Source of the DNA: a virus
IMG/VR virus record: IMGVR_UViG_3300023276_001265
DNA length: 64,000 bases
Direction: 5' to 3' (one strand)
This document shows, in pieces, positions 1,920 to 47,100 of this stretch. Every line of letters begins with the position of its first letter. Positions within the stretch are counted from its first letter, which is position 1. The position numbers and the translations under genes were made by a program. The notes below the pieces were generated by a model, which had not been told where the DNA came from, ran no database searches, and saw only the letters and a program-made list of their open reading frames with translations.

Positions 1920-3611
1920 ATGGACATGCTAGTAGGAACCAACGACGACGGAAGTGACTTCACGGTCAAAGCCAGTGATCTGCTGACGCACGGCGTCATT
2001 CTAGGCCGCACCGGATCTGGTAAGACCGGAGCCACGGTCACCACTGTCGAGAACGCCGTCATGAGCGGTGCGTCGGCGATTATCCTCGACCCCAAGGGCG
2101 ACCTGACTAACCTCGCTCTGGTATTCCCCGACCTCGCCGCTGAGGATTTCGCTCCTTGGTCTGAGGAAGGCTCGGACTCTGAGAAGATCGCCGAGAAGGC
2201 TCAGAAAGAGCTTGGTCACCTTGCCCCTAACGTCCGTGTCTGGAAAGACGCGGCTGATGTCACGATCTACGCCCCTGGCAAGACCCACGGAGGCGGTAAG
2301 CCCATCAACGTCCTCGCCTCCTTCGGCGCTCCAACTGGAACATTTAACGATCAGTCCCTCCGAGACCGTGCCTCGGCTGTCGTGTCCTCGGTCCTGAGCG
2401 CAGTCGGACACGGCGCTGACCCTCTCACCGATCCGGCCAATGTCTTCATGACTGATGTCATGGTCAATTCTTGGAAGAACGGTAAAGGATTCCCAATGGA
2501 GGAATGGGCGACGACGCTCACTGACCCTCCTGCCGAGTTCCAAGTCATTGATGGACTTCCGATCAACGATTTCTTCCCCAAGAAGGATCGCCTAAAGATC
2601 GCACGTGCGGTCGTCGGCTTTCGTCGCCAGGCCACCAAGTGGCTGGACGGTGAGGCTCTGTCCATTGAGAGCTACATCGGTATCAACAAGCCAAAGGTCT
2701 CAGTCTTCACCATGCGCCACCTCAACGAGGGTGAGCGTAAGTTCTTCGCAGCAATGCTCCTGTCGGCAATCGTGGACTACATGTTCCGCGCTCCGGCCAG
2801 CAACAAGCTGAAGCTACTGGTCGTCCTTGACGAGGCCCGTGGCTACCTGCCTCCATACCCGCTCAACCCTCCGACCAAGAAGCCGATCTGCACCCTCCTG
2901 GCGCAGGCCCGTGCCCACGGCATCGGTATTCTGATCGGGACGCAGAACCCAAACGACCTGGACTACAAAGCCCTCACTAACGTCGGCACCTGGTTCCTGG
3001 GCAAGCTGCGTGAGCGTGACTGCGCCCGTGACCTCAAGCGTGAGCTCTCGGTCCGCAATGTTGATCGGGACATTCTGTCCACGGTTCCGCAGCAACACTT
3101 CCTGGTGCTCAAGAAAGACGGCACCCACAGTCTGGCCAAGATCCGCTGGGCCTACAGCTACCTCCGTGGACCGTTGAGCGGTCAGGAGCTTCTCCGCCTG
3201 GAGGACTCTGTCCAGACCTCCTTCAAGCCTGTCCAGACCTCCGTCAAGCCCGTCAAGCCCTCCTACAAGGCGTCGTCTGCAGCCGCTCAGGTGTTTGAGG
3301 GCAGCGGTGACGTTCGCATCAACTTCGTCCTGACCGATCGCAAGTCAGGAGGGTCTACGGTAGTCGTAGAGCATTCCATCAATGGCGGCGATAGCTGGAG
3401 GTCGTCTCGTATCAAGAACAAGTCCAAGAGTTACGGGTCAACCCCTTTCGGTCAGAGACATACGGTGGTGTGGAACACGATCAAGGACGTGGGCCGCAAG
3501 AACGTGACAGCGCTGGTGCGCCTGAAGATCAACGGTCAAATCTCTCAGCACTACTCGGTGTTCAAGGTGAACAACACGAGGATTAGCCGCTTCTCGTCGC
3601 TGTTCTCCTAA
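1920..3611 (+). CDS. HerA/FtsK-superfamily (DUF87-like) P-loop ATPase with beta-rich C-terminal domain
   Basis: THGVILGRTGSGKT (Walker A), ILDPKGD, LVVLDEA (Walker B), QARAHGIGILIGTQNP. Confidence 0.85.
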   Translation: MDMLVGTNDDGSDFTVKASDLLTHGVILGRTGSGKTGATVTTVENAVMSGASAIILDPKGDLTNLALVFPDLAAEDFAPWSEEGSDSEKIAEKAQKELGHLAPNVRVWKDAADVTIYAPGKTHGGGKPINVLASFGAPTGTFNDQSLRDRASAVVSSVLSAVGHGADPLTDPANVFMTDVMVNSWKNGKGFPMEEWATTLTDPPAEFQVIDGLPINDFFPKKDRLKIARAVVGFRRQATKWLDGEALSIESYIGINKPKVSVFTMRHLNEGERKFFAAMLLSAIVDYMFRAPASNKLKLLVVLDEARGYLPPYPLNPPTKKPICTLLAQARAHGIGILIGTQNPNDLDYKALTNVGTWFLGKLRERDCARDLKRELSVRNVDRDILSTVPQQHFLVLKKDGTHSLAKIRWAYSYLRGPLSGQELLRLEDSVQTSFKPVQTSVKPVKPSYKASSAAAQVFEGSGDVRINFVLTDRKSGGSTVVVEHSINGGDSWRSSRIKNKSKSYGSTPFGQRHTVVWNTIKDVGRKNVTALVRLKINGQISQHYSVFKVNNTRISRFSSLFS

Positions 3612-3656: not shown

Positions 3657-6600
3657 ATGTCAGACGCACGACTAAGGGACGCTGAGAGACGCTGGAGCGA
3701 GACCGGGGCGGACGATGATCTGTCAGTCCTCGTAATCGCCAGGAAACGTGCAGGACTTGAGATCCCTTATGGGATGCGAGTCCGCATGACGAAGCTGTTC
3801 TCAACCTTAGGTAAAAACAAGCGTGGCCTGGAAGAGTTCCGCCACAAGACCTCGGGAATGATCTTCGTGATGATTCCTGCTGGCGAGTTCATGATGGGCC
3901 GAAACGATGAGGACACTCCCCAGCAGAGGAGAGAGTTCGCTGTTGGAGTGCACCAAGTGCTGGATGTCGCGCCCCAGCAGAGGAGAGAGTTCGCTGAACC
4001 GTTCCTGGTCGCCAAGTATCCATGGACAGGGCGTGAGTGGTATCGGACCACAGGGGAGTTCCCCTCTCATTTCCCCACACGGGCGATGATGGACGAGTGG
4101 ATGCCAGTCGCAATCCCAGAAGACGCCACCTACGGCCCTGAAATCCGCATGGAGGCTATCGACAGCGATGGAAAGAGATGGGGAGACCACCCCGTCGAGT
4201 CCGTCTCGTGGGACCGTTGTCGCCAAGTCGAGGATCACATCAATAGGGTTGACTTCGTCCGTCAGTTCAATGCCCGATTCCTCCTCAAGAATGACCTAAA
4301 GGAACACGCATGGGTCAATTGGGTCGATTACACCCACGGACTCGCTTCAATCAATCTATCTCCAGCGAAGCTCAGACCTGATGGAGAGGTGGTGCTTCCA
4401 CACTTCGCAGGACTGGTCTTCACTGATGAGGTCGAGAGCCTCTACCAGGGCTGGCTCTGGAACGAGGACAACGAGCGTGCTGGCTTCCAGCTGCCGACCG
4501 AGTCGATGTGGGAATATGCGGCCCGTGCAGGGACAACAACTCGCTACCCCAACGGGGACACGGACGAGGACCTAGCGAAGATCGCCTGGTTCGGCGGTGA
4601 CTGGGATGATGGTCACAAGGCTGTCGGCCTGAAAGATGACAACAACTGGGGCCTCCACGATAACTGCGGCAACGTGTTCGAGTGGACTCGCTGCATGTGG
4701 CGTCAAACGGTCGAGGAAAACCCAGTGAACGGCTTCCTCGCAGTAGGGGAAGAATGCTCGGACCCTACGGTTACGGAATACCTCTGCGATTCATCGATCC
4801 AGGAACGTGTATCCGTACAATTAGCCGCTCCGCCCTTACCTCCTTCGAACGAGGATGGCAGTCAATCCAGCAACAACCCACAGACCTCGGAGTCCGACCC
4901 TGCTGGAGAGCAAAGTAGCCCGGACCCTACCCCAGTTTCACCCTCAGAGGGGGTGACTGGATCGTCGGAGCAGGGGTCCTCTGCATCAAGAGGCACACCG
5001 ACTACGCCCCTCACTACTACTGGGGAACCCGATCAGCCTGGAGGGGAAGGTGAACCTGGTTTTTTCGGCCAGACCCCTGCGGAGAGATCAAGCTCTCCGA
5101 CGGAGGGCTCTGCAACATCAGTAGTGCCCCAGGGGGCGGTCGATACTTCGACCAGATCTACGGGCGCTACGCAAGGTTCAGAATCCTCAAGTCCGTCTGC
5201 TGGACTCACAGCCTCAGCTGGAGAGAGCGGACCGCAAGTTTCAGGGACCTCCTCTGGAGAACCAGTCATCAGTCCCACGTCAGCACCCGACCAGTCTGGC
5301 GAGGACGATAGCTCGGATTTTACCCAGACAGCATCTTCGTCGGAAGCGATGGGTGGGCAGACCCAGCCTGCTCCGTCGACTTCAGTAGGGGATGCTACGA
5401 CCGAGACCAATACGACCCCAGCGGCGGGGTTAGGCCAACTTGGAGAGGACGGTAGCCCGGATTTTTCACAAACTTCGTCTATTCAGACGACCCCGACATC
5501 GCCTACTTCCAGAGAAACCTCCACAGGTCCCTCTTCGGACCAGTCCCAGACAGGTGGGTCACACGCGGAGGAGACTTCCACGACGCAGGACCCAACCGCC
5601 GGGGCGTCGAGCCTAGTAGTCGATGCTACGCAGGTGGACACCGACTCTCCTGGCGAGGACGATAGCTCGGACCCTACGCATGGCTCGGATACGTCCCTGA
5701 GTCGAGATTCTACTCCGCAGGAGTCGGAACTTACTACCAGCCCCCACGGGACGAATACCGATGCGGATGCAACGCCTGTAACCCAGGAGGACACCGGGCC
5801 GCAGGCACCAGGATCTTCTGGAGAGGGCGTTAGCTCGGATTTTCCTCAAGGTGGACAGTCCACCGAGATCCAACCTTCCCCCCAAACGAGTTCGCCCTCA
5901 GAGGGCGGCAAGGGTCTTCTTTCCTCGATTCAGGGTTCATCTACGCCTCCTACGTCCCACTTGAGGTCAGCGCGACCTACGCAGAAAACGGCCGATACAT
6001 CAAAGGAAACATCTGGGACACCTTGGAAGGAGAAGAGAACATCTTCTCCACAGGAGAACGATCTTCCAGACAGCGATACATCATCCTCGGCTCACAAGGA
6101 CTCCGACCGGCCTGGAGGTGCCGGTGACGCTGTCCCTTTAGCCTTAAGGAGCGTGTCGACCAGCTCCTCGGAACACTCACCATCGACAACAGCGCCTTCG
6201 AGGACAACTTCAAGTATCAAGCCAAGTATGGAGACGCCTTCCGGCAGGTCTACGCAGCAGACGACATCAGGCTCACCCAACAGTTCTACACCGACAACTG
6301 GATGGCCGAGGGAACAGTCATCATCAAGGGAGGACATTGGAACTCGTCCGCAAGTCAACTCACCATCGCCTGGGACGACCCAACCGACCCAGACGACTCC
6401 TACGGGGAGTGGGGACTCAGACCAGCCTGGAGAATTCGGTAGTGCTGTCCCTTTAGCCTTGCGGAGCGAGTCATTCCGCTCCTCAGAGACGGCTTCCTCC
6501 GAGAACGACTCGCCGAGGTCAACGACTATCTCACCGAGGTCAGGCACAGAGCTTTCTCCTCCCATGACACATCAAGAGTCATCGTCGTCCGAAGCTCGGG

Positions 6601-8255
6601 GCAACACATGCCGATCGCCGCAGGACCTTGCCCCAGACATCGATCCGGAGGTGCCAGGGCTGAATGCACCTCACCCAGAGCAGCCTGGCGGAGCCGTTAG
6701 CTCGGATTTTCCTCAAGGGTCGCAGCCATGTCCCAGCGCATCTTTGATCTCACAAGACGACAAGACGATAGCTGGCTCGTCGTCAGTCCAGAGATCGCAA
6801 GAGAGCTTAGACACGTCTACGACCACAGAGCCGACAGAATGCTCAGAGGAGGCTTCTTCAACTCCGACACCAGAGACCAGTTCGAGGATGGATGGGACAT
6901 CTGGTCTCTCGATCCCGATCTTCCCGACCGTATCGCTGGGCTCAGGCTCACCTGGCGAGCGAGGTGATTCGGATTTTCCCCCGTCGCCTTCATTGGAAGA
7001 GGGGGTGGAAAGACTGAGGTCCTCGGGCTTAACCTCTTCGCCTCCATCATTGATGTCGCAAATTTCGGATTCCCCAGACTCGACAAGGTCCTCAGAAACC
7101 ACGCCTGGTTCGACCTCCCAGAATTCAGCAGGTGGCGACAACACTCCTGCACAGATGGAGAGGACGACGGATTCAGAGCCTCCTGGAGAGGGCGGTGATT
7201 CGGATTTTCCGTTGACGACCCCCTCGCTCTCCTACGAGGAGGCGCCTGGGGCGCAGGATCCATCACCCCAATCGATGAACACCACCCATGGGTCGATGAC
7301 TGGGCGCTCGACCGGGATCTCCCAGACGAGACCGCAGGAGGGCGACCAGCCTGGAGAGGGAGGTGATTCGGATTTTCCCCAAGGGCCTTCCTCCACTACT
7401 ACGTTCCCCAGGACTCAGACACCTGGGAGGCCTGGGAGTGGACCGGCGGATCAGAGCTCATGTCAATCAGCCAACGAAGCAGAGTCCACATCAAGGGAGG
7501 AAGCTACTACTCCAACGCCGACACCACACCAAGCCCAACCGTCTGTAGCCGATCCTACGAATACACAGTCGCCACTGGAGCGGGGAGTTGGATCGGACTC
7601 CGATCAGCCTGGAGAGGGAGGTGATTCGGATTTTCCGTTGGGGAGTTCACTCGCTTCGACATCCCTTCCTTCAGTAACTTCTGGGCCACCACCGTCGCAT
7701 CCCGACTCCCCACTGGACCAACCATCATCGTCAGAGCCCCAAGCTGGCAGTGCGACACAGGAGACTGCCTTATCAGAGATCCTCGCTGGGCTGAGGAGCG
7801 AGATGACAACATCTCCCCAAGAGCGGCCTGGAGGTGCCGCAGACCCTGATACCTTTCCAGGTGGACTCGGACCGCATATTGATAAGTGGGCTCCTCTCCT
7901 CTCCGGCATTGATGAGACCTGGACCCGGACAGTCGCAGCAGCCATGCTCGAAAACGAATCAAGACATCTACAGCGTCTCCAGTCTGAGGTCGATGGAGAG
8001 GGCGTCGGCCCCTTTCTCCAATACGCCCTCCCTCTCATCAGACGGGCCAGTCCTCTCAACTTTCCCTACGTCCAGCCCATGCTCGGACCCATCGGAGGAA
8101 TGGCCTTCTACAGACCGGATCTCGCCCGTAGAAGAGACCCCATTGAGCGAGGAGGAAGTTGGTACGAGGACACCGGCGTTCTCGGACTTGATGAGAGAGG
8201 GGCTTCTGGTGCCATCAGCTCCAGAGGGCATCGACCTGCATGGCGCTCCCGGTAG
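3657..8255 (+). CDS. FGE-sulfatase (SUMF1/C-type-lectin fold) domain protein; zero-frame read-through product of a cassette array
   Basis: FVMIPAGEFMMG, HPVESVSW, FQLPTESMWEYAARAG, NNWGLHDNCGNVFEW; the closing RGGSW...GHRPAWR motif appears only about 1100 aa later; the intervening region is S/T/P/G-rich; GGAGG RBS. Confidence 0.9.
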   Translation: MSDARLRDAERRWSETGADDDLSVLVIARKRAGLEIPYGMRVRMTKLFSTLGKNKRGLEEFRHKTSGMIFVMIPAGEFMMGRNDEDTPQQRREFAVGVHQVLDVAPQQRREFAEPFLVAKYPWTGREWYRTTGEFPSHFPTRAMMDEWMPVAIPEDATYGPEIRMEAIDSDGKRWGDHPVESVSWDRCRQVEDHINRVDFVRQFNARFLLKNDLKEHAWVNWVDYTHGLASINLSPAKLRPDGEVVLPHFAGLVFTDEVESLYQGWLWNEDNERAGFQLPTESMWEYAARAGTTTRYPNGDTDEDLAKIAWFGGDWDDGHKAVGLKDDNNWGLHDNCGNVFEWTRCMWRQTVEENPVNGFLAVGEECSDPTVTEYLCDSSIQERVSVQLAAPPLPPSNEDGSQSSNNPQTSESDPAGEQSSPDPTPVSPSEGVTGSSEQGSSASRGTPTTPLTTTGEPDQPGGEGEPGFFGQTPAERSSSPTEGSATSVVPQGAVDTSTRSTGATQGSESSSPSAGLTASAGESGPQVSGTSSGEPVISPTSAPDQSGEDDSSDFTQTASSSEAMGGQTQPAPSTSVGDATTETNTTPAAGLGQLGEDGSPDFSQTSSIQTTPTSPTSRETSTGPSSDQSQTGGSHAEETSTTQDPTAGASSLVVDATQVDTDSPGEDDSSDPTHGSDTSLSRDSTPQESELTTSPHGTNTDADATPVTQEDTGPQAPGSSGEGVSSDFPQGGQSTEIQPSPQTSSPSEGGKGLLSSIQGSSTPPTSHLRSARPTQKTADTSKETSGTPWKEKRTSSPQENDLPDSDTSSSAHKDSDRPGGAGDAVPLALRSVSTSSSEHSPSTTAPSRTTSSIKPSMETPSGRSTQQTTSGSPNSSTPTTGWPREQSSSREDIGTRPQVNSPSPGTTQPTQTTPTGSGDSDQPGEFGSAVPLALRSESFRSSETASSENDSPRSTTISPRSGTELSPPMTHQESSSSEARGNTCRSPQDLAPDIDPEVPGLNAPHPEQPGGAVSSDFPQGSQPCPSASLISQDDKTIAGSSSVQRSQESLDTSTTTEPTECSEEASSTPTPETSSRMDGTSGLSIPIFPTVSLGSGSPGERGDSDFPPSPSLEEGVERLRSSGLTSSPPSLMSQISDSPDSTRSSETTPGSTSQNSAGGDNTPAQMERTTDSEPPGEGGDSDFPLTTPSLSYEEAPGAQDPSPQSMNTTHGSMTGRSTGISQTRPQEGDQPGEGGDSDFPQGPSSTTTFPRTQTPGRPGSGPADQSSCQSANEAESTSREEATTPTPTPHQAQPSVADPTNTQSPLERGVGSDSDQPGEGGDSDFPLGSSLASTSLPSVTSGPPPSHPDSPLDQPSSSEPQAGSATQETALSEILAGLRSEMTTSPQERPGGAADPDTFPGGLGPHIDKWAPLLSGIDETWTRTVAAAMLENESRHLQRLQSEVDGEGVGPFLQYALPLIRRASPLNFPYVQPMLGPIGGMAFYRPDLARRRDPIERGGSWYEDTGVLGLDERGASGAISSRGHRPAWRSR
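3918..3996 (+). repeat. 25-bp exact direct repeat (PQQRREFA x2)
   Basis: CCCCAGCAGAGGAGAGAGTTCGCTG at 3918-3942 and 3972-3996. Confidence 0.9.
4760..7849 (+). other. array of 14 alternative FGE C-terminal cassettes in the -1 frame
   Basis: Heptamer-to-stop coordinates: 4760-4918, 4922-5053, 5060-5311, 5315-5455, 5459-5665, 5669-5833, 5837-6127, 6134-6442, 6449-6700, 6704-6967, 6971-7198, 7202-7366, 7370-7624, 7628-7849. All end R-x-x-W-R-x-(R/K) (e.g. GLRPAWRIR*, GVRPTWRGR*, GFRASWRGR*); many have an RGGxW-like motif (LRGGDW, IKGGHW, LRGGAW, IKGGSY, TRGGDF, LRGGFF). Confidence 0.9.
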
Positions 8256-8565
8256 CATCGTCGTCAATGTACACGACGAGGTGCTTGTTGGACTTCCTGC
8301 GGACACCATGATCGGAGTTAGCATCAGTGGTCACATTCATCACCTCACCAATCAGTTCCGGCTAACCTCATTTGACTTCGTAGCTAGTCCTCCAGTGGCT
8401 GGGGCTTATCCCCGACTCGTCCCTCCCAGAACATCGCTACACACTTCATTAGGTGGAACCTGGTTTGAGGTCTTCCACAGAAGGTCAATTCCACGTTCTA
8501 GCTCTGGGGCTTTTCCAGTCTGTCGCAACCAATGGTCGACCCGGCCTTGCTGGCGTTCACGTTAA
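8254..8565 (+). other. 16th FGE C-terminal cassette, in the +1 frame
   Basis: 3' part of ORF 7834-8565: SLGGTWF...WSTRPCWRSR*, the same terminal signature as the other cassettes. Confidence 0.75.
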
Positions 8566-8596
8566 ATCTGATATCACGATGCGCCACAAAAAAGAC

Positions 8597-8624
8597 TTGC
8601 AATCCCCTCATGTCCCCCTAGACT
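8597..8624 (+). promoter_or_regulatory. sigma70-like promoter of the replication operon
   Basis: TTGCAA-N16-TAGACT, with an upstream A-tract, before 8688. Confidence 0.45.
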
Positions 8625-8687
8625 CACTCACCAGGCGAGACCATTTTAATCGCCTCACCCCACTAAGCATCACCTCCGAGGTTCACC

Positions 8688-8981
8688 ATGACACGCCGTG
8701 AGCAGGGATACCTCCGTGTCCCGAGACAACTTGTGAGCGACAAAAGCATGAAGTCCTCGGACCTCCGTGTATTCGCTGTGCTCATGGACATGTGCACTAC
8801 AGCTGACGAGATAGAAGATGGACTAGATGCCATCACTGAACACACTGGACTGACCAAGCGGACGGTCTGCGAGTGTTTGTCTAGGCTTGAAGGGCGTGGG
8901 TTCATTACGCGAGAGAGTCGTCGCGGACCTTACACTGGGCTCATCACCATTAGCGATGCGGCGGCAGACCTCAGTGCATAA
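8688..8981 (+). CDS. winged helix-turn-helix protein
   Basis: AITEHTGLTKRTVCECLSRLEGRGFITR; GAGG RBS. Confidence 0.8.
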   Translation: MTRREQGYLRVPRQLVSDKSMKSSDLRVFAVLMDMCTTADEIEDGLDAITEHTGLTKRTVCECLSRLEGRGFITRESRRGPYTGLITISDAAADLSA

Positions 8982-8991
8982 GCGTAAAAGC

Positions 8992-9312
8992 ATGCCTCAG
9001 GTAGTAGACCAGGTCGTTAAGGACGCAGACCTCAACGCATCTACGAAGATCATCTACCTCTACATCGCAGCCGCGTATCGTCTCAACTACTACACAAATC
9101 CCCACAACTGCGGCTCCTACGAAATCCTCGCAGAGGCTACCAACTTCAGCGTGGCTACCGTAAGGCGTGCCCTAAAGCAGCTAGTTGAAGTGGGACTACT
9201 CTCTATCGACTCAAGCTCCGACAAATTCGAGACGTGGCTCCCAGTGAAGATCCTTCACCTTGACGGTGGGCTGAACCTGCTACGGCAAATCGCCAACGCA
9301 GGTGGTGCGTGA
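8992..9312 (+). CDS. winged helix-turn-helix protein
   Basis: SYEILAEATNFSVATVRRALKQLVEVGLL; start uncertain (frame open from 8887). Confidence 0.75.
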   Translation: MPQVVDQVVKDADLNASTKIIYLYIAAAYRLNYYTNPHNCGSYEILAEATNFSVATVRRALKQLVEVGLLSIDSSSDKFETWLPVKILHLDGGLNLLRQIANAGGA

Positions 9313-10844
9313 GAAAGACCACGCGTCCGTTCACGATCATCTTAGATGACCTAATCCGCAGCCCTGACATCACCTCCACTGAGTTCCGACTCTACACACT
9401 GCTCCTCTCCTACTGTGCGAAGGCCGCTAACAAGGACAAGACGTGCCGCATTCCGAAGGTCGTCCTCGCAGGGGAGATCGGCATGTCGGTGACAGGGCTG
9501 ACCAAGGCGCTCCGCAAATTGGAGACGTTAAAGCTGGTCACGGTCAGCTACGACACGCCCCAGAAGCCAGCGTATACGATCAACACATCACCCCCAGAGA
9601 CGATCTGTCCCGACGAATTCAAGGGTCGGTTTTGGACGAAAGCCCTCGACTACATCAAAGCTAAAGGTGGGCTGAAGCTATTCCAGCGAAAGACCAACAA
9701 GCGCCCCACCAAGGAAGCGCGTCGGACTGGGTGGCCGAAGGGTCGGATTCCGGGACCACCTCCTACCTCCGATGTTCTCACCGATGAAGTGGGGGCACAA
9801 GTCCATCAACAGCAGAGTCTAACAGACTCAACCCATACACTGGAGTGTATGAGCTCGGACGCTGAAGGTGAGCCCAACCCACCAACTCCAGTTGGGGGTA
9901 CCCCCCACTCCAGTGGGGGACCCCCCTCACTCCAGTGTATGGGTTCAGGTCAAACCCCCCAACTGGAGTGTATCCCGTATAAGAGTAAGAAAGAGATTAC
10001 TGAAAGAATACCTTACGGTATGCCGCTTCACGGCGAGAGTCGTGCTCTCGCACGCCCGGAGGGCGCAACTCTCTGCGCTCGTTCTGCCCAAGAAGAAGAA
10101 CCAGAAAACTCCGCCATCGGAGCTGTACGCCGTTTTGATATCAGTATTTCTGAGGAGGCTCTAGTGCCTGAATCTGAGGAACAGCGTTTAGAGCGCAAAA
10201 GACGACAAAAAGAGCGGAAAACAGGTCAGCTCGACTTCAACATGGGACCTAAAGCCAAGCGCGACGGTGGTTCTGAGGTTGCGCCCAAGGGGAGAAAGAA
10301 GCACCAGCGTGGAGCTGGGCCACCTCCCACAGGGCCTAGGAGCAACCCTGATCACCGATCTACCCAGGAACACGCCGACGACATGACCAAGGGCCCTCAG
10401 GACGTCTCAGCCGTCCCTGGGGACGCGTGGGGGCTATACGCCCATTTCAGCAAGGCAGTCCGACAGAAATATCCGAATGCTCGACCTAGTAATGCGAACA
10501 AGAAGATATTAGGTCGATGTAAACAGCTGGGCCGGGATTACGACCCTGTCAGGCTCTACGAGATGATCCAGGTCCTTGTGATGGATTACGAGAATTTTGG
10601 AATCGCCAGGGTGTTCATGAAGTTCAGTGGAACCCCGGTTCCGACCTTCGATCAATTTCAGGCGAATGCTGAACTTCTTTCATCGTTCGTTGGAATTGGC
10701 GTGATCTCTCCTCCAGCTGTTCGTCGTAGCCATTACGCCGACGATTACGCCAAGAGGAAGGGAGGGAGTTCGTCTACCAAGGTAGAAGATTCTGGCGACC
10801 CGATTAAGGCGCTGCGCGACAAATACAACCCAACCAACAAATAG
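9309..10844 (+). CDS. replication initiator protein (N-terminal wHTH)
   Basis: LAGEIGMSVTGLTKALRKLETLKLV; internal iterons; directly upstream of DnaC- and DnaB-like genes. Confidence 0.7.
   Translation: MRKTTRPFTIILDDLIRSPDITSTEFRLYTLLLSYCAKAANKDKTCRIPKVVLAGEIGMSVTGLTKALRKLETLKLVTVSYDTPQKPAYTINTSPPETICPDEFKGRFWTKALDYIKAKGGLKLFQRKTNKRPTKEARRTGWPKGRIPGPPPTSDVLTDEVGAQVHQQQSLTDSTHTLECMSSDAEGEPNPPTPVGGTPHSSGGPPSLQCMGSGQTPQLECIPYKSKKEITERIPYGMPLHGESRALARPEGATLCARSAQEEEPENSAIGAVRRFDISISEEALVPESEEQRLERKRRQKERKTGQLDFNMGPKAKRDGGSEVAPKGRKKHQRGAGPPPTGPRSNPDHRSTQEHADDMTKGPQDVSAVPGDAWGLYAHFSKAVRQKYPNARPSNANKKILGRCKQLGRDYDPVRLYEMIQVLVMDYENFGIARVFMKFSGTPVPTFDQFQANAELLSSFVGIGVISPPAVRRSHYADDYAKRKGGSSSTKVEDSGDPIKALRDKYNPTNK
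9830..9973. repeat. iteron-like repeats, putative replication origin
   Basis: Five ACT(CC/GG)AGT cores; 18-bp perfect inverted repeat at 9830-9847 and 9928-9945; A-rich tract follows. Confidence 0.6.
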
Positions 10845-26828: not shown

Positions 26829-28019
26829 ATGCCTAGAAAACGATCAGCAAAGGACTTGTTAGCAAAACTGAGCGTTGACTCAGATGGCCTAGCAGGACTC
26901 GTAGCTTCCCCGTTTGGGATGCTGAACGAACTGGTGAAGAAAAACGCCAAGTCCGTAATGGATCCAGGACACTGCGATGAGTTAGTTACGAAGTTACTTG
27001 GTAGTGGGAAGGTAGCCCTTCCAGTAGAAGACGCTATCAAACTCCTCTCTGTAGCAGACCTAGCTGGACTTGCTGTACATCCATACTTCATTCGGGCTGC
27101 CGCTCGTCAGGGTGTTTCGTTTTATGTAGCAGCAGATGGGTCGCTCAACAGGCAAACACATGCGGATGCGGCTCAGATCGTTCCAGTGCCGTTATCTGGT
27201 GAACCAGACCCCAACTTCTACATAGAGCCAGAGTGGTTTAGCTATCTCTCTGCTTTCGTAGACGGTGGGCTACCTGTAATGCTCATCGGCCCACCAGGCT
27301 CAGGAAAAACAACTGCAGTAGAGCGACTCTTCGTCAGAAGAGAGCAAACACTTCAGATCGTTTCGTGCACACCTTCGATGACTGCAGATGACTTTGAAGG
27401 AACCACTGACCTGCGCAACGGTGAAACCATCTTTACCCCGTCTGCCTGTGCTGTCGCCGTTAAGGAAGGCCACGGTCTGTTGTTAGATGAGGTGGATGCT
27501 GCCATGCCAGAGGCGTGCTACTCGCTCTACCGTGCGCTTGACGGGAAAGACATGCGTATTGCCCGACAGGGATATGAGAGTCGAATCGCGCCAGCTCCAT
27601 CATTCCGGGCTGTGGGAACCCAGAACACTGAAGGACGAGGTGACGATCGTGGTATCCACCACGGACGCTCATACCAGGATGAGGCTTTCCTAGATAGGTG
27701 GGCCAACTACATCCGCGTCGATTACCTACCGTTCGATACCGAAGTGATTGTCCTATGCAAGAGGACTGGACTCCCAAAAAAGAAGTCCAAGATGATTGTG
27801 AAGACTGCCACTGAACTGAGAAGGGCGTTCGAGACAGATCGAATAATGCTCTGCATGACTATGCGACGGACGTTGTCGGTTGCTGCTAACATCGCGGCTG
27901 GCCTGACACCGGCAGTAGCGTGGAGGTTTGCGGTCCAGAACCGAGCCACCAACGAGGACCGTCAGATCATTGATGACTTCGTGAACAGGATCTACGGGTC
28001 CGCAGCAGGTAAGCACTAG
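26829..28019 (+). CDS. MoxR-type AAA+ ATPase (CobS/CbbQ/NorQ-like)
   Basis: GPPGSGKT, LLDEVD, GTQNTEG, AFLDRW. Confidence 0.9.
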   Translation: MPRKRSAKDLLAKLSVDSDGLAGLVASPFGMLNELVKKNAKSVMDPGHCDELVTKLLGSGKVALPVEDAIKLLSVADLAGLAVHPYFIRAAARQGVSFYVAADGSLNRQTHADAAQIVPVPLSGEPDPNFYIEPEWFSYLSAFVDGGLPVMLIGPPGSGKTTAVERLFVRREQTLQIVSCTPSMTADDFEGTTDLRNGETIFTPSACAVAVKEGHGLLLDEVDAAMPEACYSLYRALDGKDMRIARQGYESRIAPAPSFRAVGTQNTEGRGDDRGIHHGRSYQDEAFLDRWANYIRVDYLPFDTEVIVLCKRTGLPKKKSKMIVKTATELRRAFETDRIMLCMTMRRTLSVAANIAAGLTPAVAWRFAVQNRATNEDRQIIDDFVNRIYGSAAGKH

Positions 28020-28543
28020 TGCCCGACGACACGACAAAGGACGATGAGTGGGAGATCCTCTCCTACCCAGACAAGAGGCTGAGGCTCGTATCCGAGCCGA
28101 TTACAGAGATCACCGACAAGATCCGGAGTAGGGGATTGGCCCTGATGGATCTAATGCACAAGGCAAGGGGGATTGGTCTTGCTGCTCCGCAGGTTGGGTG
28201 GCACGTGCAGATCCTAGCTATCAACCTGTCCGGTAAACGCCAGGATGGTCTGATCTTCCTGAACCCTAAGATCGTATCCTCATCAAAAGCCACCTTCTCT
28301 GCGACAGAGATGTGCCTGTCGGTGCCGGGGATTTCTGGGAAGGTCGAACGTCCCCGTGAGGTCACCATCACCTCCATGAACTTTGACGGCGAGCTAAACG
28401 AGTTCACGCTAGACGGGCTCTTAGGTAGGTGTTTCCTTCACGAGTTCGATCACCTACATGGGAAGCTGTTTATTGATCGCCTTAGTCCAGCTAAGAAGCT
28501 CTCAATTAAGAAGAAGCTCAAGCTGCTCGGCGGTCCTGAATGA
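28019..28543 (+). CDS. def: peptide deformylase
   Basis: GIGLAAPQVG, EMCLS, HEFDHLHG. Confidence 0.95.
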   Translation: MPDDTTKDDEWEILSYPDKRLRLVSEPITEITDKIRSRGLALMDLMHKARGIGLAAPQVGWHVQILAINLSGKRQDGLIFLNPKIVSSSKATFSATEMCLSVPGISGKVERPREVTITSMNFDGELNEFTLDGLLGRCFLHEFDHLHGKLFIDRLSPAKKLSIKKKLKLLGGPE

Positions 28544-29088
28544 TCCACCCGATGGTGGAGACCACCAGCATGAACGCGACTAAGCCCGCGCACACCAAGA
28601 AGTGGCTTAAGTATAGGACCGGTCGTCACATCGATGATAAGTCGATCTGGATGTTTATTGACGGTAGCTCTACCGGCTGGCACGCAGCGGTCATTCTCAA
28701 TCCGTTCACTAAGAAGATCACCAGAATTGCGAAGTTCAGAAAGCCCAACAAGAGCGCAAACGTCGGAGCGGAGCTCATGTCGCTGGTCATCGGCCTGCAG
28801 GCAGACGAAGCTGAGCCAGACAAGAGAATCATCGTAGTCCATGACTACATCGGTACAGGAGCGTGGTTGGTCAAGGCCTGGAAGATCAAGAGTCCCGAGG
28901 TGTTGGACATAGTTCAAGGGATCAACTACACCATCGACATGAAGGCGTTCACATCAGTCAGGTTCATCCACCATGGTGGACACCAGAAAGACGATACGGA
29001 TTTCACTCGCTGGAACAATGAAGTAGACCAGCTCTGTACCAACCAGCAGGAGGTACACGCAACGGTCTGTTGGAATCCAGAGTTCTAG
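28540..29088 (+). CDS. RNase H-like protein
   Basis: FIDGS, AELMS, VHD, GH...WNNEVDQL. Confidence 0.75.
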   Translation: MIHPMVETTSMNATKPAHTKKWLKYRTGRHIDDKSIWMFIDGSSTGWHAAVILNPFTKKITRIAKFRKPNKSANVGAELMSLVIGLQADEAEPDKRIIVVHDYIGTGAWLVKAWKIKSPEVLDIVQGINYTIDMKAFTSVRFIHHGGHQKDDTDFTRWNNEVDQLCTNQQEVHATVCWNPEF

Positions 29089-29091
29089 CTA

Positions 29092-30753
29092 ATGGAGAAG
29101 CGGTTAGACCCTCGTCACTTGATGACGGCCCAAGAGACAATTGCGGCTACCCTTGCAGGATCTGACGTTGCGGTCGTGTTTGACTCAGAGACCCCATGGA
29201 CCGATCTCAAGACCAAAACCATTCATCTAAGGCCAATCCCAGATCAGCTGGACCCAGAAGCCATTGAGGATCTTCGTGGAGACTGTGACCACGAGCTGGG
29301 GCACATAATCCACACTGACCCTGAGGCGATTGTGGGGATCAAGCGGCAACTCGTAAAGAGCATTGCCTTTTCTATCGAAGACGGTCGTGTTGAGCGTTTG
29401 ATCGGGGCTGAGTGGATCGGGTGTGGAGAGAACCTGGAAAGGTCCTCCAAACGAGCCGTGCTCCGCATTGGAGCTGAGGCTGAGGACGACGAGGCGAATC
29501 GGAGGGCCCGTGCCGTTTGTGGGTTGAGTCTGATCGCCTATGGATGGGATGCTCTTGCCGCTGTCGATGCCTTGGGCGCAGACATCGAACACTATTATGA
29601 AGACCTCGGTGTCCTCATTAACTTCCTCGGGGAGTGCGGATCCACCTCGGAGGTAGTCAGCCTGGCAGAGACGATCATCGATCGTTGGAAATGGGCCCCG
29701 ACTGGTAAGTCCAGAGCGAAGTCCAAGGGCGCGAAGGAGAACGCCGTCGCGAAGGAGATATCCTCCTTCTCTCTGAGCCCAGCTACCGACAGGAAGCAAC
29801 TGCTCAAGACGATTGGATCTACTGATGTGTGTGGGTCATATCGAGCAAAGACGGATCGTGACGTTGTCGAACCTATTCGTCCTCCATCACTTGACCTTGG
29901 AAGACTCTATGGGCTCTTCTTTGAGGGAGTAAGACAAACAGCGCCAATTCTTCGCAGACGACTGATGATGCAGTTCAGGTCCACAGGTCACCGAACTAAG
30001 TCTCTACAGAAGAAGGGTAAGCTGGACGAGAGGAACCTCTGGCGATCCGGCATAGGGGACGATCGGCTCTACAAGGTCCGTACTACGGCTCAGACCAACA
30101 GGTCTATAGTCACAATCATGGTTGATTGCTCTGCGTCTATGACACGGGCCGCACGCCCTCCAGCCTTTGAGGGGGAAGCGCTAGCCCTCAGAACACGCTT
30201 GTTTGTGGCAGCGCAGGCTGCTGCAGCCGTTAGTTCGTCGTTGGACGCGCTAGGGGTGCCAAATGAAGTATTGGCCTTCTCGACCGCTAAGAGAACGCCT
30301 GGAGCTCAATTAGAGTTCGATAGGGTGCGACCAATCCGACATCTCATCATTAAGCCGTTCCATAAGTCATTTCAGTCCTGTCGAAGTAAGTTCATGTGGC
30401 TAGCCTTCTTTGAGCACTGCTCTGAGAATATCGACGGAGAAGCGGTTCTGTGGGCCTCGCGGAGAATCCTATCGAGGCCTAATCGAGGAGACCGACCTGT
30501 GCTTATGGTGTTCTCAGACGGAGAACCGGCGTCTTCGCCAGAAAGTAACGCTGTCCTGGCCCAACATCTCAGGAAGTCCATTAAACGGGCTGAGGCATCG
30601 GGGATCACTATCTTTGGAATCGGAATCGGAAGTGATGCAGTTAGATCCTTTTACGACAACTCCGTTATCGTGTCCGACGTAAGCAATTTGCTTTCAACCT
30701 TCTATGACTTGATTAAAAAAGTTCTTCAAGAGCGTCGGACCAGTCGGGTATAA
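29092..30753 (+). CDS. CobT-like VWA protein with N-terminal HExxH domain
   Basis: DHELGH...EDGRVE; MIDAS DCSAS, NIDGEA, FSDGEP, GIGIG. Confidence 0.85.
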   Translation: MEKRLDPRHLMTAQETIAATLAGSDVAVVFDSETPWTDLKTKTIHLRPIPDQLDPEAIEDLRGDCDHELGHIIHTDPEAIVGIKRQLVKSIAFSIEDGRVERLIGAEWIGCGENLERSSKRAVLRIGAEAEDDEANRRARAVCGLSLIAYGWDALAAVDALGADIEHYYEDLGVLINFLGECGSTSEVVSLAETIIDRWKWAPTGKSRAKSKGAKENAVAKEISSFSLSPATDRKQLLKTIGSTDVCGSYRAKTDRDVVEPIRPPSLDLGRLYGLFFEGVRQTAPILRRRLMMQFRSTGHRTKSLQKKGKLDERNLWRSGIGDDRLYKVRTTAQTNRSIVTIMVDCSASMTRAARPPAFEGEALALRTRLFVAAQAAAAVSSSLDALGVPNEVLAFSTAKRTPGAQLEFDRVRPIRHLIIKPFHKSFQSCRSKFMWLAFFEHCSENIDGEAVLWASRRILSRPNRGDRPVLMVFSDGEPASSPESNAVLAQHLRKSIKRAEASGITIFGIGIGSDAVRSFYDNSVIVSDVSNLLSTFYDLIKKVLQERRTSRV

Positions 30754-41934: not shown

Positions 41935-43227
41935 GTGGACCGTCTTATCTCCGGTTTTCGACTGCTCCCCTCAGGGACAAGAACAGCAAATGGGCCCCTA
42001 AAGCCTAGCGCTGATGATGATGTATGCCCTGAGGCTGTTGCTGAGTTTTTTGATTCAGTTTATATAGCAACCGAGAAGCTGAGATCGTTCGGGCTCTCTG
42101 ATAAGGACTTTGGCGGTCCAATCAAACTTGTCGCCAGAAAAGGCGATGAGAAGGCGAATGGTCGCTACACGCCGGGCACCGACTCAACAGTCATCTTCCA
42201 CCCACCGGTCAGAAGCGCCCCAGATGTGCTGTGGGTAATTATCCACGAGACGTTGCACCGCATCTGGGCGAAGCAGCTCACCAAAGAGTCACATAAAATT
42301 TGGGGCTTAATCTGCAATTCGATTGGTAAGCCGATCGATGGAGATATGGCCGATGCTCTGACCAGGACCGTCAAATCCAATCCTGAGCGTTCTAGTCTCT
42401 GGTTCTTCTTTCAGAAGCACTTTGGGGATGACTTAGGGGTGTTTCGCAACTGGCTCACGACCAAAAAGATGAGCGATTCGTTCCCTAGTGACTACTCCAA
42501 CGCAAACCCGTCTGAGGCGTTCGCTGAAGTAGGAGCGGACATAATCCTTGGGCGAGGTCGAGCTGGCCGAGAGATTCGCCGGTCTGGGTCTATGGTCAAG
42601 AAAGTGTTCTTGTCCCTGGTTCAGAACCTTCGCCATGAAGAGATGTCCGAGGACATAGCACTGGTTCGACACGTTCCCGGCCCCGGAGAAGCTCGATCAG
42701 ATCCGAATTTTCTCCAGCTGCAGGTGGACTTCTACTACTTGCGTTGGAAATTAGGCGATTGGGTCCGCAAGCGCCTGTCTAGTAGTGATGTAATCAAGTT
42801 AGAGGAGCGACCTCACGCGACACTTTATTACGGGGCCGATAGGCGAGACCTAGCTCAGATCCAAAAGATCATCGGAGGGCATGGTCGGTCATTAAGGATG
42901 ATGCTTGGGTCGCTCAACGTATTCGAGCACGAGGATAAGGACATCCTCTATTTTGAGCTGATCGGCGATCCTCTGCCAACTCTACACGCGCAGATCAAAA
43001 AACTCCCAAATACTAGACCGCCGACGCACCCAGATTACGTGCCGCATTTGACTGTGGCCTATATGAAAAAGGGTTCAGCTAGGAAATTCATCGGATCAAA
43101 TCCTTTGCGGATGATCATTAGTGCACGTCGAGTAACGGTAATAGATTCGGTTGGAATCGAATCAATGATCCGCACCACCCAAGCTGAAGAACTTGTCCGG
43201 GAGCCACTACTGCTTGCTGGACGGTAG
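41935..43227 (+). CDS. zincin-like metallopeptidase fused to a 2H phosphoesterase (gp57B/Acb1-like)
   Basis: IIHETLH...YSNANPSEAFAE; PHATLYYG and YVPHLTVAY. Confidence 0.75.
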   Translation: MDRLISGFRLLPSGTRTANGPLKPSADDDVCPEAVAEFFDSVYIATEKLRSFGLSDKDFGGPIKLVARKGDEKANGRYTPGTDSTVIFHPPVRSAPDVLWVIIHETLHRIWAKQLTKESHKIWGLICNSIGKPIDGDMADALTRTVKSNPERSSLWFFFQKHFGDDLGVFRNWLTTKKMSDSFPSDYSNANPSEAFAEVGADIILGRGRAGREIRRSGSMVKKVFLSLVQNLRHEEMSEDIALVRHVPGPGEARSDPNFLQLQVDFYYLRWKLGDWVRKRLSSSDVIKLEERPHATLYYGADRRDLAQIQKIIGGHGRSLRMMLGSLNVFEHEDKDILYFELIGDPLPTLHAQIKKLPNTRPPTHPDYVPHLTVAYMKKGSARKFIGSNPLRMIISARRVTVIDSVGIESMIRTTQAEELVREPLLLAGR

Positions 43228-44005: not shown

Positions 44006-46285
44006 ATGGCACTTCGCGACGATGCGCTAAACTACCTGCGCCAGGTATTCGGCCGTGAACGCGCCGAGCGTGATCGGGCTGAATCTCCCTCGGCCGAGGC
44101 CGAGAAGCACATCCCGTCATCCATCTTCTCGGTATGGGGCCGAGAAGACGTCGGCGGACTACTCAGCGTCTCGCAGAACCTGATGGACAGGTATGCAGAT
44201 TATGAGCAGATGGATGATTATCCGGACATCAACTGTCTCACTGCAGATACTACGATTTACGTGGTTGAAGACTCCATTATCAAGCCCACTAGGATCCACG
44301 ACCTAGCTGCTCACGGCGGTGGCCCCAAGATCCTGGCCTACGACACAGAGAAGGACAAGCTCGTCGTAGTGGCGTCTGAGAATCCTCGCATTTCTGGCGA
44401 TAAGCAGGAGGTGGTTGAGGTCGGGTTTAGCAATGGTGAGAAAATCAAGTGCACCCCTGGGCACAAGTTCCTCACGGTCGAGCACGATTACATCAATGCC
44501 TCTGATCTAGTCGAGGGAACGGTTGTGGTCTCTTGTTGGTCTGGGTTTGACCCAACAGGAATGACCGCCTTTCTGCACTCAACATCAGGCCGATTGAAGG
44601 TGACCCAGGCCGCGATTCCGGCTGGGGTCGAAGACGTCTACGACGTCACAACTAAGACCCACAACTTCATCGCTAATGGGATTGTTGTCCATAACAGCGC
44701 CCACCACTACTTCACAAACGATGCGACCCAGCCGGATATTGACACCGGAAAAACCGTTTGGGTCCATTCTAGCGACGAAGCTATCAAGAGCATGTCGGAC
44801 GTGCTGCTCAACAAGCGGCTACGAATTGAAGACGATATCTGGTCCATGGTCTACACGACCGTGAAGATGGGCAATAACTACGAGGAGGTGCTGATCACTG
44901 ATAACGGCGTTGTCGGCCTCAACTCTCTTCCCTGCCCCACCATGCGCCGTGTCGAGCAGTCCAATGGCTCGATCATTGGTTACGTCCAGGACATCACTGG
45001 GAAGTTCACGCAGGACGCCTCGGACCTTCGCGGGATGCTGGCCGGTCAGGCTAAGGTCCCGGACCACGTCGCCCTGTTCGAGGAGTGGCAAGTCCTACAT
45101 ACGCGCCTTCGTGGCACGGCCCGCAGAACTCCATACGGGTTCGGTGTGGCTGATGGAGCTCGCTGGATCTGGAAGAGACTGGTTCTTCTCGAAGACTCGA
45201 TGCTCATCTACAAGCTGACCCGAGCTCCAGCCCGGTTCGCCTTCTACATCGACGTCACCGATATTCCATCTGACAAGGTGGAGTCCTTCCTACGCAAAGC
45301 CAAGCAAGACCTGCGGAAGCAGAAACTTGTTAACCCGAGGACCCAGCGCCTCGACATGCGTATGAATCCGATGGACAACCTTCAGGACTTCTTCATCGCG
45401 GTCCGCGAAAATCGCGAGCTAGCCCGTGTAGAGGTTCTCCAAGGCCCTGACTATCAGGCGACCGAGGATGTGGAGTACTTCCAGCGGAAGCTACACGGCG
45501 TCCTGAAGATCCCCAGGAACTATCTAGGGCAAGACGACGGCATCCCAGCCCGATCGATCCTCTCTTACGAGGATGTGCGGTCCGCACGCGTCACGATGGG
45601 AATCCAGCGCGAGGTCAGGAACAGCATTCGTCGTCTGATTCAGATCGATCTTGCGGCCCGAGGGATCAACCCCTTCAGGCAAGACCTTCAGGTGATGATG
45701 ACGGTCCCGTCCGGGATCTATGAGCTGGCGCACAACGAGATCAAGAACGCGAGAGCTGACTTCGCAACGCGAGTCCAGCCGTTTGTCTCAATGCGCTATA
45801 TCCAGGAGAAGATTCTCAAACTGACCGGCGATCAGATAGAGCGGATCGAGAAGGAGCGGGAAGAGGATCAAAAGAAGGAAGCTGCTCAGCAACAGGCTAT
45901 GGGCGGAGGTGATGATGGCGGTGGTGGCGGCGCTCCTGCTGCTGATGGTTCTCCGCCAGATGACGCTCCAATGCACCCAGGAAACGCTGAGATCGGCCCA
46001 CCACCGGGCTCTGGGGGTCGACCAGACAGTAAGTCGGAGTGGAAGTCTTACGATAGGGCGCGGCGCATTGAGGAAAAACGTGATCGCATGTCCCGGCAGC
46101 GTGATCAAGAGATTCAAGACACAATGCACAAGGTCATTGTCGGTAATAAGCAGATGGCCGCACAGCTCGCCCATCAACAGCAATTCTTCCGCGAGTTCAA
46201 GCACGCCGCATTCTCCCGGAACGGGAACGGCGGTCTGATCTCAGCCCCTCAGGGCGGCGGTCATCGACGACGTCGCATTAAGTGA
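44006..46285 (+). CDS. portal protein (T4 gp20-like) with mini-intein
   Basis: YADYEQMDDYPDI, LLEDSMLIYKLTRAPARFAFYIDV, DFFI, EDVEYFQRKLHGVLKIP. Confidence 0.92.
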   Translation: MALRDDALNYLRQVFGRERAERDRAESPSAEAEKHIPSSIFSVWGREDVGGLLSVSQNLMDRYADYEQMDDYPDINCLTADTTIYVVEDSIIKPTRIHDLAAHGGGPKILAYDTEKDKLVVVASENPRISGDKQEVVEVGFSNGEKIKCTPGHKFLTVEHDYINASDLVEGTVVVSCWSGFDPTGMTAFLHSTSGRLKVTQAAIPAGVEDVYDVTTKTHNFIANGIVVHNSAHHYFTNDATQPDIDTGKTVWVHSSDEAIKSMSDVLLNKRLRIEDDIWSMVYTTVKMGNNYEEVLITDNGVVGLNSLPCPTMRRVEQSNGSIIGYVQDITGKFTQDASDLRGMLAGQAKVPDHVALFEEWQVLHTRLRGTARRTPYGFGVADGARWIWKRLVLLEDSMLIYKLTRAPARFAFYIDVTDIPSDKVESFLRKAKQDLRKQKLVNPRTQRLDMRMNPMDNLQDFFIAVRENRELARVEVLQGPDYQATEDVEYFQRKLHGVLKIPRNYLGQDDGIPARSILSYEDVRSARVTMGIQREVRNSIRRLIQIDLAARGINPFRQDLQVMMTVPSGIYELAHNEIKNARADFATRVQPFVSMRYIQEKILKLTGDQIERIEKEREEDQKKEAAQQQAMGGGDDGGGGGAPAADGSPPDDAPMHPGNAEIGPPPGSGGRPDSKSEWKSYDRARRIEEKRDRMSRQRDQEIQDTMHKVIVGNKQMAAQLAHQQQFFREFKHAAFSRNGNGGLISAPQGGGHRRRRIK
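44234..44695 (+). mobile_element. mini-intein in portal (154 aa)
   Basis: CLTADT..., CTPGHKF, VYDVTTKTHNFIANGIVVHN|S. Confidence 0.92.
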
Positions 46286-46974: not shown

Positions 46975-47100
46975 GGAAAAATAGCTTTTAGTCAACTGCG
47001 GCCAAAACCGCTTGCCCGATGACGAGCTTCAAGGCCGGTTAACAGCAGCCCACGGCCTGGTGACCGTAAATTTGTTCCTGACATTGAGCGCGGCATTCTT
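46971..47100 (-). ncRNA. putative omegaRNA with guide
   Basis: IS605-like right end (GCAAGC...CAGTTGAC, ending at 46991) downstream of tnpB; the guide would be about 46990-46971. Confidence 0.4.

Follow-up and report, generated by a model that had tools for sequence, protein, structure and literature searches.

A 64,000-nt stretch of viral DNA (IMG/VR record IMGVR_UViG_3300023276_001265, the whole of which is called the window hereafter) raises the question of how a single phage gene might give rise to some sixteen proteins, and why many of these would end in fragments of head proteins. The window belongs to a large marine myophage of the T4 superfamily, and its genes include a gp20-type portal, a tail sheath, DnaB, a primase, a helicase, RecA, and a family-A polymerase with inserted elements. 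The gene in question (the array gene, 3657-8255, on the plus strand like all of its parts described below) is found in the replication/early region near the DnaB, primase, helicase, and RecA genes, outside the head and tail modules. Judged by its anatomy and by homology, it very probably encodes a constant N-terminal part of the FGE-sulfatase/C-type-lectin fold with ~16 alternative ends, whose inserts are homologous to head proteins. We tentatively propose that its products constitute an early-made, frameshift-multiplexed library of conserved "self" epitopes on a lectin-fold scaffold, which would blunt host immunity or sabotage rival phages and satellites. In a literature search no published precedent was found for either the serial-frameshift decoding or the head-protein-fragment content.

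The frame-0 open reading frame (ORF) of 1532 aa comprises a constant N-terminal domain (N-domain, 3657-4759), a read-through stretch of 1030 codons rich in Ser, Thr, and Pro, and the cassette numbered 15. Residues 70-363 of the N-domain match positions 5-208 of the 255 positions in the FGE-sulfatase hidden Markov model (HMM; Pfam PF03781, E=5.6e-19, 69 bits against a cut-off of 23.3), i.e., the first four-fifths of the fold are present and the final fifth is missing from the domain. From 4757 onward, the -1 frame is divided by stop codons into 14 segments of 44-104 residues each; every segment ends in the motif G-x-R-x-x-W-R-x-R and a stop, after which (L/F/P)G(F/P)x starts the next. Cassette 15 in frame 0 (7866-8252) and cassette 16 in the +1 frame (8257-8562) bring the number of alternative C-terminal cassettes to ~16. 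An HMM built from the last 48 cassette residues matched 51 of 61 cellular FGE-domain proteins, and among the 26 best-scoring proteins listed this match was nearly always located at most 150 residues (mostly ~20) downstream of the end of the N-domain match. Because the cassette matches directly follow the N-domain match, the cassettes appear to be alternative versions of the C-terminal module of the FGE fold; the PF03781 model itself does not reach them. The junction between N-domain and C-terminal module is ~20 residues long in cellular proteins and 40-95 residues long in many cassettes, the excess being the inserts. Cassettes 2 (4919-5050), 4 (5312-5452), and 12 (7199-7363), all in the -1 frame, are plain fold ends without insert and differ only in the loop after the RGGxW motif. 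A complex prediction for the N-domain with cassette 7 scored 0.17, below the mark.

Many of the other cassettes carry, between the putative slip site and the RGGxW motif, a segment of 30-95 residues from the most conserved parts of head-morphogenesis and packaging proteins. Over all arrays studied the donors are the major capsid protein (at least three segments in the window and five distinct ones across relatives), the prohead protease (two), the large terminase, and probably the portal (two or three). For the capsid, the comparator was an HMM of 126 gp23-family sequences (461 positions), with 3200 shuffled cassettes as the control; an unbiased scan consisted of Smith-Waterman comparison of the cassettes with the 1172 ORFs of G001, a complete related phage of 203.5 kb. 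The capsid, protease, and terminase comparators were proteins of related phages, and the portal comparator was the window's own. The initial annotation, made by eye, had likened cassettes 7, 10, 15, and possibly 6 to the major capsid protein, and for the first three the likeness is borne out by three different capsid segments. Cassette 7 (-1 frame, 5834-6124) matches the C-terminal part of the capsid HMM (positions 382-428) with 47.7 bits (z 21.6), cassette 10 (-1 frame, 6701-6964) its mid-to-late part (positions 324-358) with 14.4 bits (own shuffle maximum -0.2; z 6.8-8.8; 17-19 bits for its orthologues), and cassette 15, the default ending in frame 0, the N-terminal region (positions 25-121) with 82.7 bits, compared with 3.8 bits for the best of the 3200 shuffled cassettes. 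In the G001 scan the major capsid protein was the top match of both cassette 7 (p~8e-10) and cassette 15. The insert of cassette 15 alone found 70 matches at E<1e-3 among 1.8 billion proteins (best non-self 2.8e-15), which sit at residues ~20-110, the N-termini, of proteins that Pfam calls Gp23; the cassette aligns to approximately residues 9-139 of T4 gp23. Since none of the cassettes matches more than one of these three HMM intervals and none contains the full HK97-type capsid domain (PF07068), they are, by this comparison, fragments of the capsid family and not capsid proteins. Cassette 6 (-1 frame, 5666-5830) gave no match to the capsid HMM (z 1.2), and no donor was found for it.

The other donors proposed by eye fared unevenly. 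Of the two cassettes assigned to the terminase, cassette 11 (-1 frame, 6968-7195) kept the assignment: the large terminase was its top match in G001 (p~1e-4), the profile of orthologous cassettes gave E=5.6e-4 against terminase, and the motif, read by eye, resembles the Walker-B region. The identification of this G001 ORF as terminase comes from ESM features (0.96), and there is an intein in its upstream piece. Cassette 3 (-1 frame, 5054-5308; orthologue L026_m4), which opens with the canonical heptamer T_TTT_TTC, scored z -0.3 against terminase, and its insert has no identified donor. Cassette 16 had been read as motif C of PolA; its score of 30 against the window polymerase is below the shuffle mean of 33.9, and it matches the prohead protease instead. 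Against a Peptidase_S77 protein of a related phage it reached z 9.1 in the catalytic-serine region, the prohead protease was its top match in G001 (p~5e-4), and the profile of its orthologues gave E=8e-7; a second, N-terminal protease segment is present in relatives (profile 2.7e-6). The portal assignments range from suggestive to unsupported. Cassette 5 (-1 frame, 5456-5662) has a suggestive portal-like motif (residues 487-502 of the window's own portal; z 3.3, p~8e-3; z 5.8, p~3e-4 for its orthologue L027_m6), and cassette 8 (-1 frame, 6128-6439), whose insert is conserved with 85% nucleotide identity to the related locus L002, has a weak portal likeness (z 0.1 to 4.0; profile E=1). For cassette 1 (-1 frame, 4757-4915; orthologues in L002, L009, and L026) the portal scored no better than shuffles, and no donor is identifiable. 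Weak likeness to capsid residues ~66-89 is also found in cassette 14 (-1 frame, 7625-7846; 1.2 bits against a shuffle maximum of -1.3; z 3.0). Cassettes 9 (-1 frame, 6443-6697) and 13 (-1 frame, 7367-7621) had no significant source in the G001 proteome scan. A resemblance of cassettes 1 and 10 and of L002 cassette 1 to T4 gp17 264-338 was rejected as due to chance: it overlaps the RGGxW-type motif of the scaffold, and the capsid match of cassette 10 is stronger.

Set against core-protein profiles and shuffled controls, then, five inserts stand out clearly, and those of cassettes 1, 3, and 6 are no better than shuffles. When 80 cassettes were compared with four families, 33 tests gave p<1e-3 with ~0.3 expected by chance. 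We conclude from these scores that homology to head proteins is genuine for the inserts of cassettes 7, 10, and 15 (capsid), 11 (large terminase), and 16 (prohead protease). The proteome-wide scans turned up no donor among tail or replication proteins. Pfam and PHROG scans of single cassettes were nearly blank (only cassette 15 against phrog_138, E=0.09, and cassette 7 against Gp23, E=0.08) because the library models are too distant from the lineage of the phage. All -1 cassettes searched by tblastn against 50,697 phage genomes gave one weak match, phmmer of cassette 15 against PDB sequences returned only an antibody (E=0.26), and a cassette-8-type profile found no match among longer proteins in 5.8 billion sequences.

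How, then, would cassettes in three frames be reached from one N-domain? In comparison with L002, substitutions at cassette codon positions 1/2/3 number 14/9/24 in cassette 8 and 14/6/26 in cassette 9; they pile up at the third position, which in frame 0 is a second position, and purifying selection therefore acts on the cassette frame. Across the cassettes, frame 0 is rich in Ser, Thr, Pro, and Gly and contains 0 stops; recoding the cassette peptides with the codon usage of the phage predicts 17.8 +/- 3.6 frame-0 stops (minimum 7 in 2000 trials), which indicates that frame 0 is kept open by codon choice. In seven arrays, i.e., those of the window and six related loci, an in-phase slip motif (T_TTT, C_CCT, or full heptamers such as C_CCT_TTA and T_TTT_TTC) is found at 58 of 64 cassette boundaries, and the six boundaries lacking it are exactly those that precede a module read in frame 0. 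A Shine-Dalgarno-like 4-mer is located within 21 nt up to and including the stop at 61 of the 64, although the same bases also encode W-R-G-R and the two constraints are inseparable. Taken together, serial -1 frameshifting is probably the best reading of the decoding. Ribosomes would translate the stop-free, disordered, Ser/Thr/Pro-rich stretch in frame 0; a fraction would slip by -1 at every cassette boundary, on T_TTT, C_CCT, or a heptamer behind the Shine-Dalgarno-like tract, read one cassette, and then terminate; and those that never slip would reach cassette 15.

The +1 frame may be in use as well. It is open from 7807, and across cassette 15 it is stop-free and Ser/Pro-rich (P=0.04, from the window genome alone); across the frame-0 cassette it is also stop-free in L003, L009, L026, and L027 and has a stop in L002. 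After the boundary that has no -1 slip motif (7847-7880 in the window), a frame-0 TTT_C occurs within four or five codons in the window, L003, L009, and L026 (4 of 4 checked), and downstream of this TTT_C no stop interrupts the +1 frame until the last cassette ends. The TTT_C after the 7847 boundary may be a +1 slip site.

Decoding without frameshifts was considered in several forms, in which the cassettes are silent relics or are joined to the N-domain by DNA rearrangement or by stop-codon reassignment. Reassignment is contradicted by the cassette-ending stops, among which both TAG and TGA occur, whereas frame 0 is free of stops. Recombination might be imagined between direct repeats of 40-47 nt at the boundaries, and one low-depth seawater contig joins 5678 to 6685 and thus omits cassettes 6-9. 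However, all repeat spacings are multiples of three, and therefore a deletion would leave the reading in frame 0 and the -1 cassettes out of frame. Seawater and marine metagenomes contain the phage repeatedly (at least 90% of the sampled words of the stretch in five runs from five studies, two of these runs possibly being the window's own source), and contigs from four independent seawater runs follow the order of the window; three of the runs span the whole array at 99-100% identity and the fourth a part of it. Independent initiation of the cassettes was rejected too, the sole nearby start-like codon being a +1-frame GTG that abuts the Shine-Dalgarno-like tract. With the -1 frame under purifying selection, frame 0 open by codon choice, and slip motifs absent exactly where frame 0 must be kept, the frameshift-free alternatives are hardly credible. 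The same metagenomes contain two alleles of cassettes 8 and 9 (6098-6567), present together at comparable depth in two seawater runs; over 190 nt of cassette 8, the alleles are separated by 15 substitutions and three gaps of a single base.

The proposed decoding resembles the -1 frameshifting of E. coli dnaX and of the phage tail chaperones G/GT, in which an in-phase slippery motif is preceded ~10 nt upstream by a Shine-Dalgarno-like tract and an overlapping -1 ORF supplies an alternative C-terminus. Three differences are apparent: up to 16 putative -1 sites follow each other in one gene (L026; 14 in the window) instead of a single site; most of them are single-tRNA tetramers and not full heptamers; and the zero frame between sites is a stop-free spacer rather than a functional domain. 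A constant N-terminal part with many C-terminal cassettes flanked by short conserved repeats is also known from the R64 shufflon, the G and C segments of Mu and P1, and the silent cassettes of pilS and vlsE. In contrast to those systems, the array cassettes are all co-oriented and out of frame with the constant part, the DNA is collinear across independent samples, and the multiple-of-three spacings fit no recombinase logic.

Eleven full-length relatives of the gene were found, with N-domain identities of 51-68%. The seven loci with DNA share the same three-frame logic, and the six related ones are collinear arrays with the same insert types plus further capsid, portal, and protease segments. 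The capsid N-terminal and protease cassettes are present in all seven arrays, although in L008 the capsid piece is the second half only and the terminal protease cassette is not significant. A portal N-terminal motif is clear in L003 (z 9.7-11.8), where it is displayed in frame 0 just before a slip site, and is present with weaker scores in L002 and L026 (z 3.3-4.0). The smallest array, that of G001, consists of four cassettes: one of type 1, one with the protease N-terminal motif, one with the capsid N-terminal region in frame 0, and finally a +1-frame cassette, which by eye is protease-like and alone is not significant (p=0.15). A free-standing ORF of 194 aa (48-632 of the 1.4-kb contig L030; protein P0003) has no FGE scaffold and combines a capsid N-terminal-like segment, 51% identical to the cassette 15 insert, with a portal-like motif, so the same motifs may be used in other architectures too.

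The initial annotation had pictured the array as a growing collection of captured phage epitopes on a common scaffold, with a layout like that of a CRISPR array and perhaps a polarised acquisition. The homologous inserts on an FGE/C-type-lectin fold agree with the scaffold part of this picture; the growth part does not hold. The inserts are ~40-55% identical to any known capsid protein, and when the array was compared by blastn with the remainder of the window and with the complete G001 genome, only the orthologous array was found and no DNA similarity to head genes; the inserts are therefore old and not recently captured, and the analogy to CRISPR spacers fails on the missing nucleotide match. 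Nor is acquisition polarised: shared cassettes keep one collinear order across six arrays, and the lineage-specific ones are interspersed along the array, not gathered at one end. We read this history as an old recruitment followed by selection that keeps the conserved motifs.

What might such isoforms do? Capsid, portal, and terminase are triggers of bacterial immunity through the Avs families, Lit, and CapRel (PMC13581612), as the initial annotation had stated, and the prohead protease, which it had not noticed, triggers the cyclic-oligonucleotide-based anti-phage signaling system (CBASS) (10.1101/2023.05.21.541620; PMC12991175), in which CD-NTase activation loops are cleaved by phage prohead proteases (PMC12991175). 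Avs sensors wrap whole folds and Lit and CapRel read short capsid motifs (PMC13581612), and therefore short linear segments fit sensing of the Lit or CapRel type better. Both of these short-motif capsid sensors (Lit recognizes the Gol peptide of T4 gp23) are host defence proteins and not relatives of the array. Cassette 15 aligns over approximately residues 95-127 of gp23, which we take to overlap the Gol region. Mimicry in host-virus conflicts is familiar from the poxvirus pseudosubstrate K3L, the DNA mimic Ocr of T7, and the integrated decoys of plant nucleotide-binding leucine-rich repeat receptors. We liken the array to these systems, in which a target-like or trigger-like piece built into another protein is recognized in its place; it would differ from them in that the virus copies many of its own conserved structural proteins, multiplexed on one scaffold in one gene.

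Residues conserved across the donor families have been kept in the inserts while the rest diverged, which suggests that the resemblance itself is selected and that the isoforms are molecular mimics; mimicry as the selected property we regard as an evenly balanced proposition. Three features favor it: the gene lies in the early region, its donors are all head or packaging proteins, and the conserved motifs have been retained. The isoforms would be made before the late proteins and would serve as competitive decoys or antagonists of host factors that recognize short conserved motifs of these late proteins, in the manner of Lit and CapRel, or that sense protease activity. The host-sensor decoy in particular is doubtful, and the explanation as a whole is possible if less than probable. 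We rank the decoy slightly above poisoning of head assembly, and these above mimicry-free loop diversification and self-targeting. A role as tail fibre or receptor-binding protein was rejected because the gene is located in the replication region.

If the isoforms were instead assembly poisons, dominant-negative segments on a bulky domain would cap or divert the oligomers of co-infecting related phages or satellites while the phage's own proteins tolerate them. The confinement of the repertoire to head-assembly and packaging proteins in the proteome-wide scans, segments that are nearer to the family consensus than to the phage's own protein, as expected of a broad anti-rival weapon, and the early location of the gene are in keeping with such a role, and capsid and packaging proteins are known targets of satellites (PMC11417361). 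It is nevertheless unlikely, since the phage's own assembly might not be spared, buried core or active-site segments are not probable oligomer interfaces, and half of the cassettes have no identified donor. That last fact would suit a role without any mimicry, in which the array is a hard-wired counterpart of diversity-generating retroelements (DGRs), offering ~16 ligand-binding surfaces for which pieces of head proteins were chance raw material for loops. The variable proteins of DGRs (Mtd of Bordetella phage, TvpA) belong to the same fold family as the array gene; in them, the final 40-50 residues, which run from RGGSW to GFR, vary and bind the ligand, and the cassettes substitute for precisely this stretch. 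What DGRs diversify is the C-terminal module of the FGE-type C-type-lectin fold, and cassettes 2, 4, and 12, lacking an insert, differ in just the loop after RGGxW. However, array diversity is a fixed cassette set from which the choice is apparently made in translation; the sole repeats in 4000-9500 are the boundary motifs of 60-87% identity, which do not form a template/variable repeat pair, and no reverse transcriptase was noticed among the ORFs scanned, which were not all of those in the window. Unlike DGR targets, the gene is an early-region gene and not a tail fibre gene, and its cassettes carry large inserts from other proteins. Donor-conserved residues are kept across arrays whose N-domains have diverged to 51-68% identity, where neutral loops would drift, and the same few donors recur through many different segments. 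Loop diversification alone is thus distinctly unlikely.

The segments could also be addresses to the phage's own scaffold, prohead, portal, or packaging motor, the isoform being a cargo, a timing regulator, or a chaperone. The default isoform carries the capsid N-terminal region, which by the alignment to T4 gp23 includes the propeptide, and in T4 the gp23 propeptide contacts the scaffolding core; the universal occurrence of the capsid N-terminal and protease cassettes (partial in L008) would agree with an address. It is difficult to reconcile with this idea that the gene is in the early/replication region, that a terminase segment and a protease catalytic region make implausible addresses, and that the capsid N-terminal cassette of G001 is strongly diverged from its own capsid protein, and we consider it quite improbable.

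Several observations also weigh against the frameshift-multiplexed mimic library that we prefer. The AlphaFold2 model of a 635-aa relative has a mean pLDDT of 55, with an unfolded C-terminal half. The proposed decoding does not account for cassette 16, which is in the +1 frame. Eight of the 16 cassettes are without likeness to any donor protein, and the likenesses of 5, 8, and 14 are suggestive or weak. The capsid consensus is matched by the cassettes at 51-79% of the columns that are at least 80% conserved versus 0-21% of the variable columns, a test biased by the fact that conserved columns drive the HMM alignment. The best scores of cassettes 7 and 10 are those against capsid proteins from clades other than that of G001, and the G001 capsid N-terminal cassette has just 14 bits against the G001 capsid protein; faithful copying of self is therefore not maintained. 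From sequence context and general knowledge of the folds, several of the mimicked segments presumably lie in the core or active site of their donors, and if so placed, buried segments may not display a native-like shape. A true trigger mimic might activate a sensor rather than block it, and linear segments may not engage Avs-type sensors, which envelop whole folds (PMC13581612).

Immediately upstream of the array gene is a HerA/FtsK-like ATPase gene (1920-3611, plus strand; Pfam DUF87, HerA_C, and TrwB_AAD_bind), which is the invariant upstream neighbor in all seven loci with DNA; this constant neighborhood suggests that the two genes form a module. In the PADLOC defence library the ATPase matches HerA models and, best of all, mad8 of the MADS system (4.9e-16). 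The gp20-type portal gene (44006-46285) has an intein-like insertion directly after its conserved N-terminal portal motif, the same motif that the arrays of relatives display in frame 0; besides the intein in the G001 terminase, inteins are also present in the DnaB and RecA genes of L002. The protease and capsid genes expected near the portal from relatives are absent in the window. Adjoining an HNH endonuclease gene and the portal gene, 41935-43227 encodes a possible counter-defence protein of 430 aa, with a C-terminal match to the 2'-5' RNA ligase superfamily (6.6e-7) and a weak one to the anti-CBASS protein Acb1 (0.0016). A transposase-like gene (47029-48144, minus strand; PHROG 506, 1.6e-17) is located between a portal-adjacent ORF and the sheath gene. 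CobS- and CobT-like genes (26829-30753; porphyrin/cobaltochelatase PHROGs, 1.9e-43 and 5.1e-51), which are typical of marine phages, are present as well.

The array family, present in at least 11 related phages, bears on both the decoding of genes and the conflict between phages and their hosts. In its decoding, one gene of a bacterial virus is apparently read into up to ~16 proteins by serial slips, with one frame kept open purely as a spacer. In its content, the alternative ends hold conserved pieces of the head-assembly proteins of the virus itself, which bacterial immune receptors monitor. If the epitope-library reading is true, the family would represent a new class of counter-defence together with a new way of decoding a gene; fragments that act as mimics would make it a new counter-defence or inter-virus weapon and a natural example of epitope display. 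Even if there is no mimicry, the array would represent a way for a binding scaffold to recruit parts of essential genes, and a compact system for the study of frameshift efficiency.

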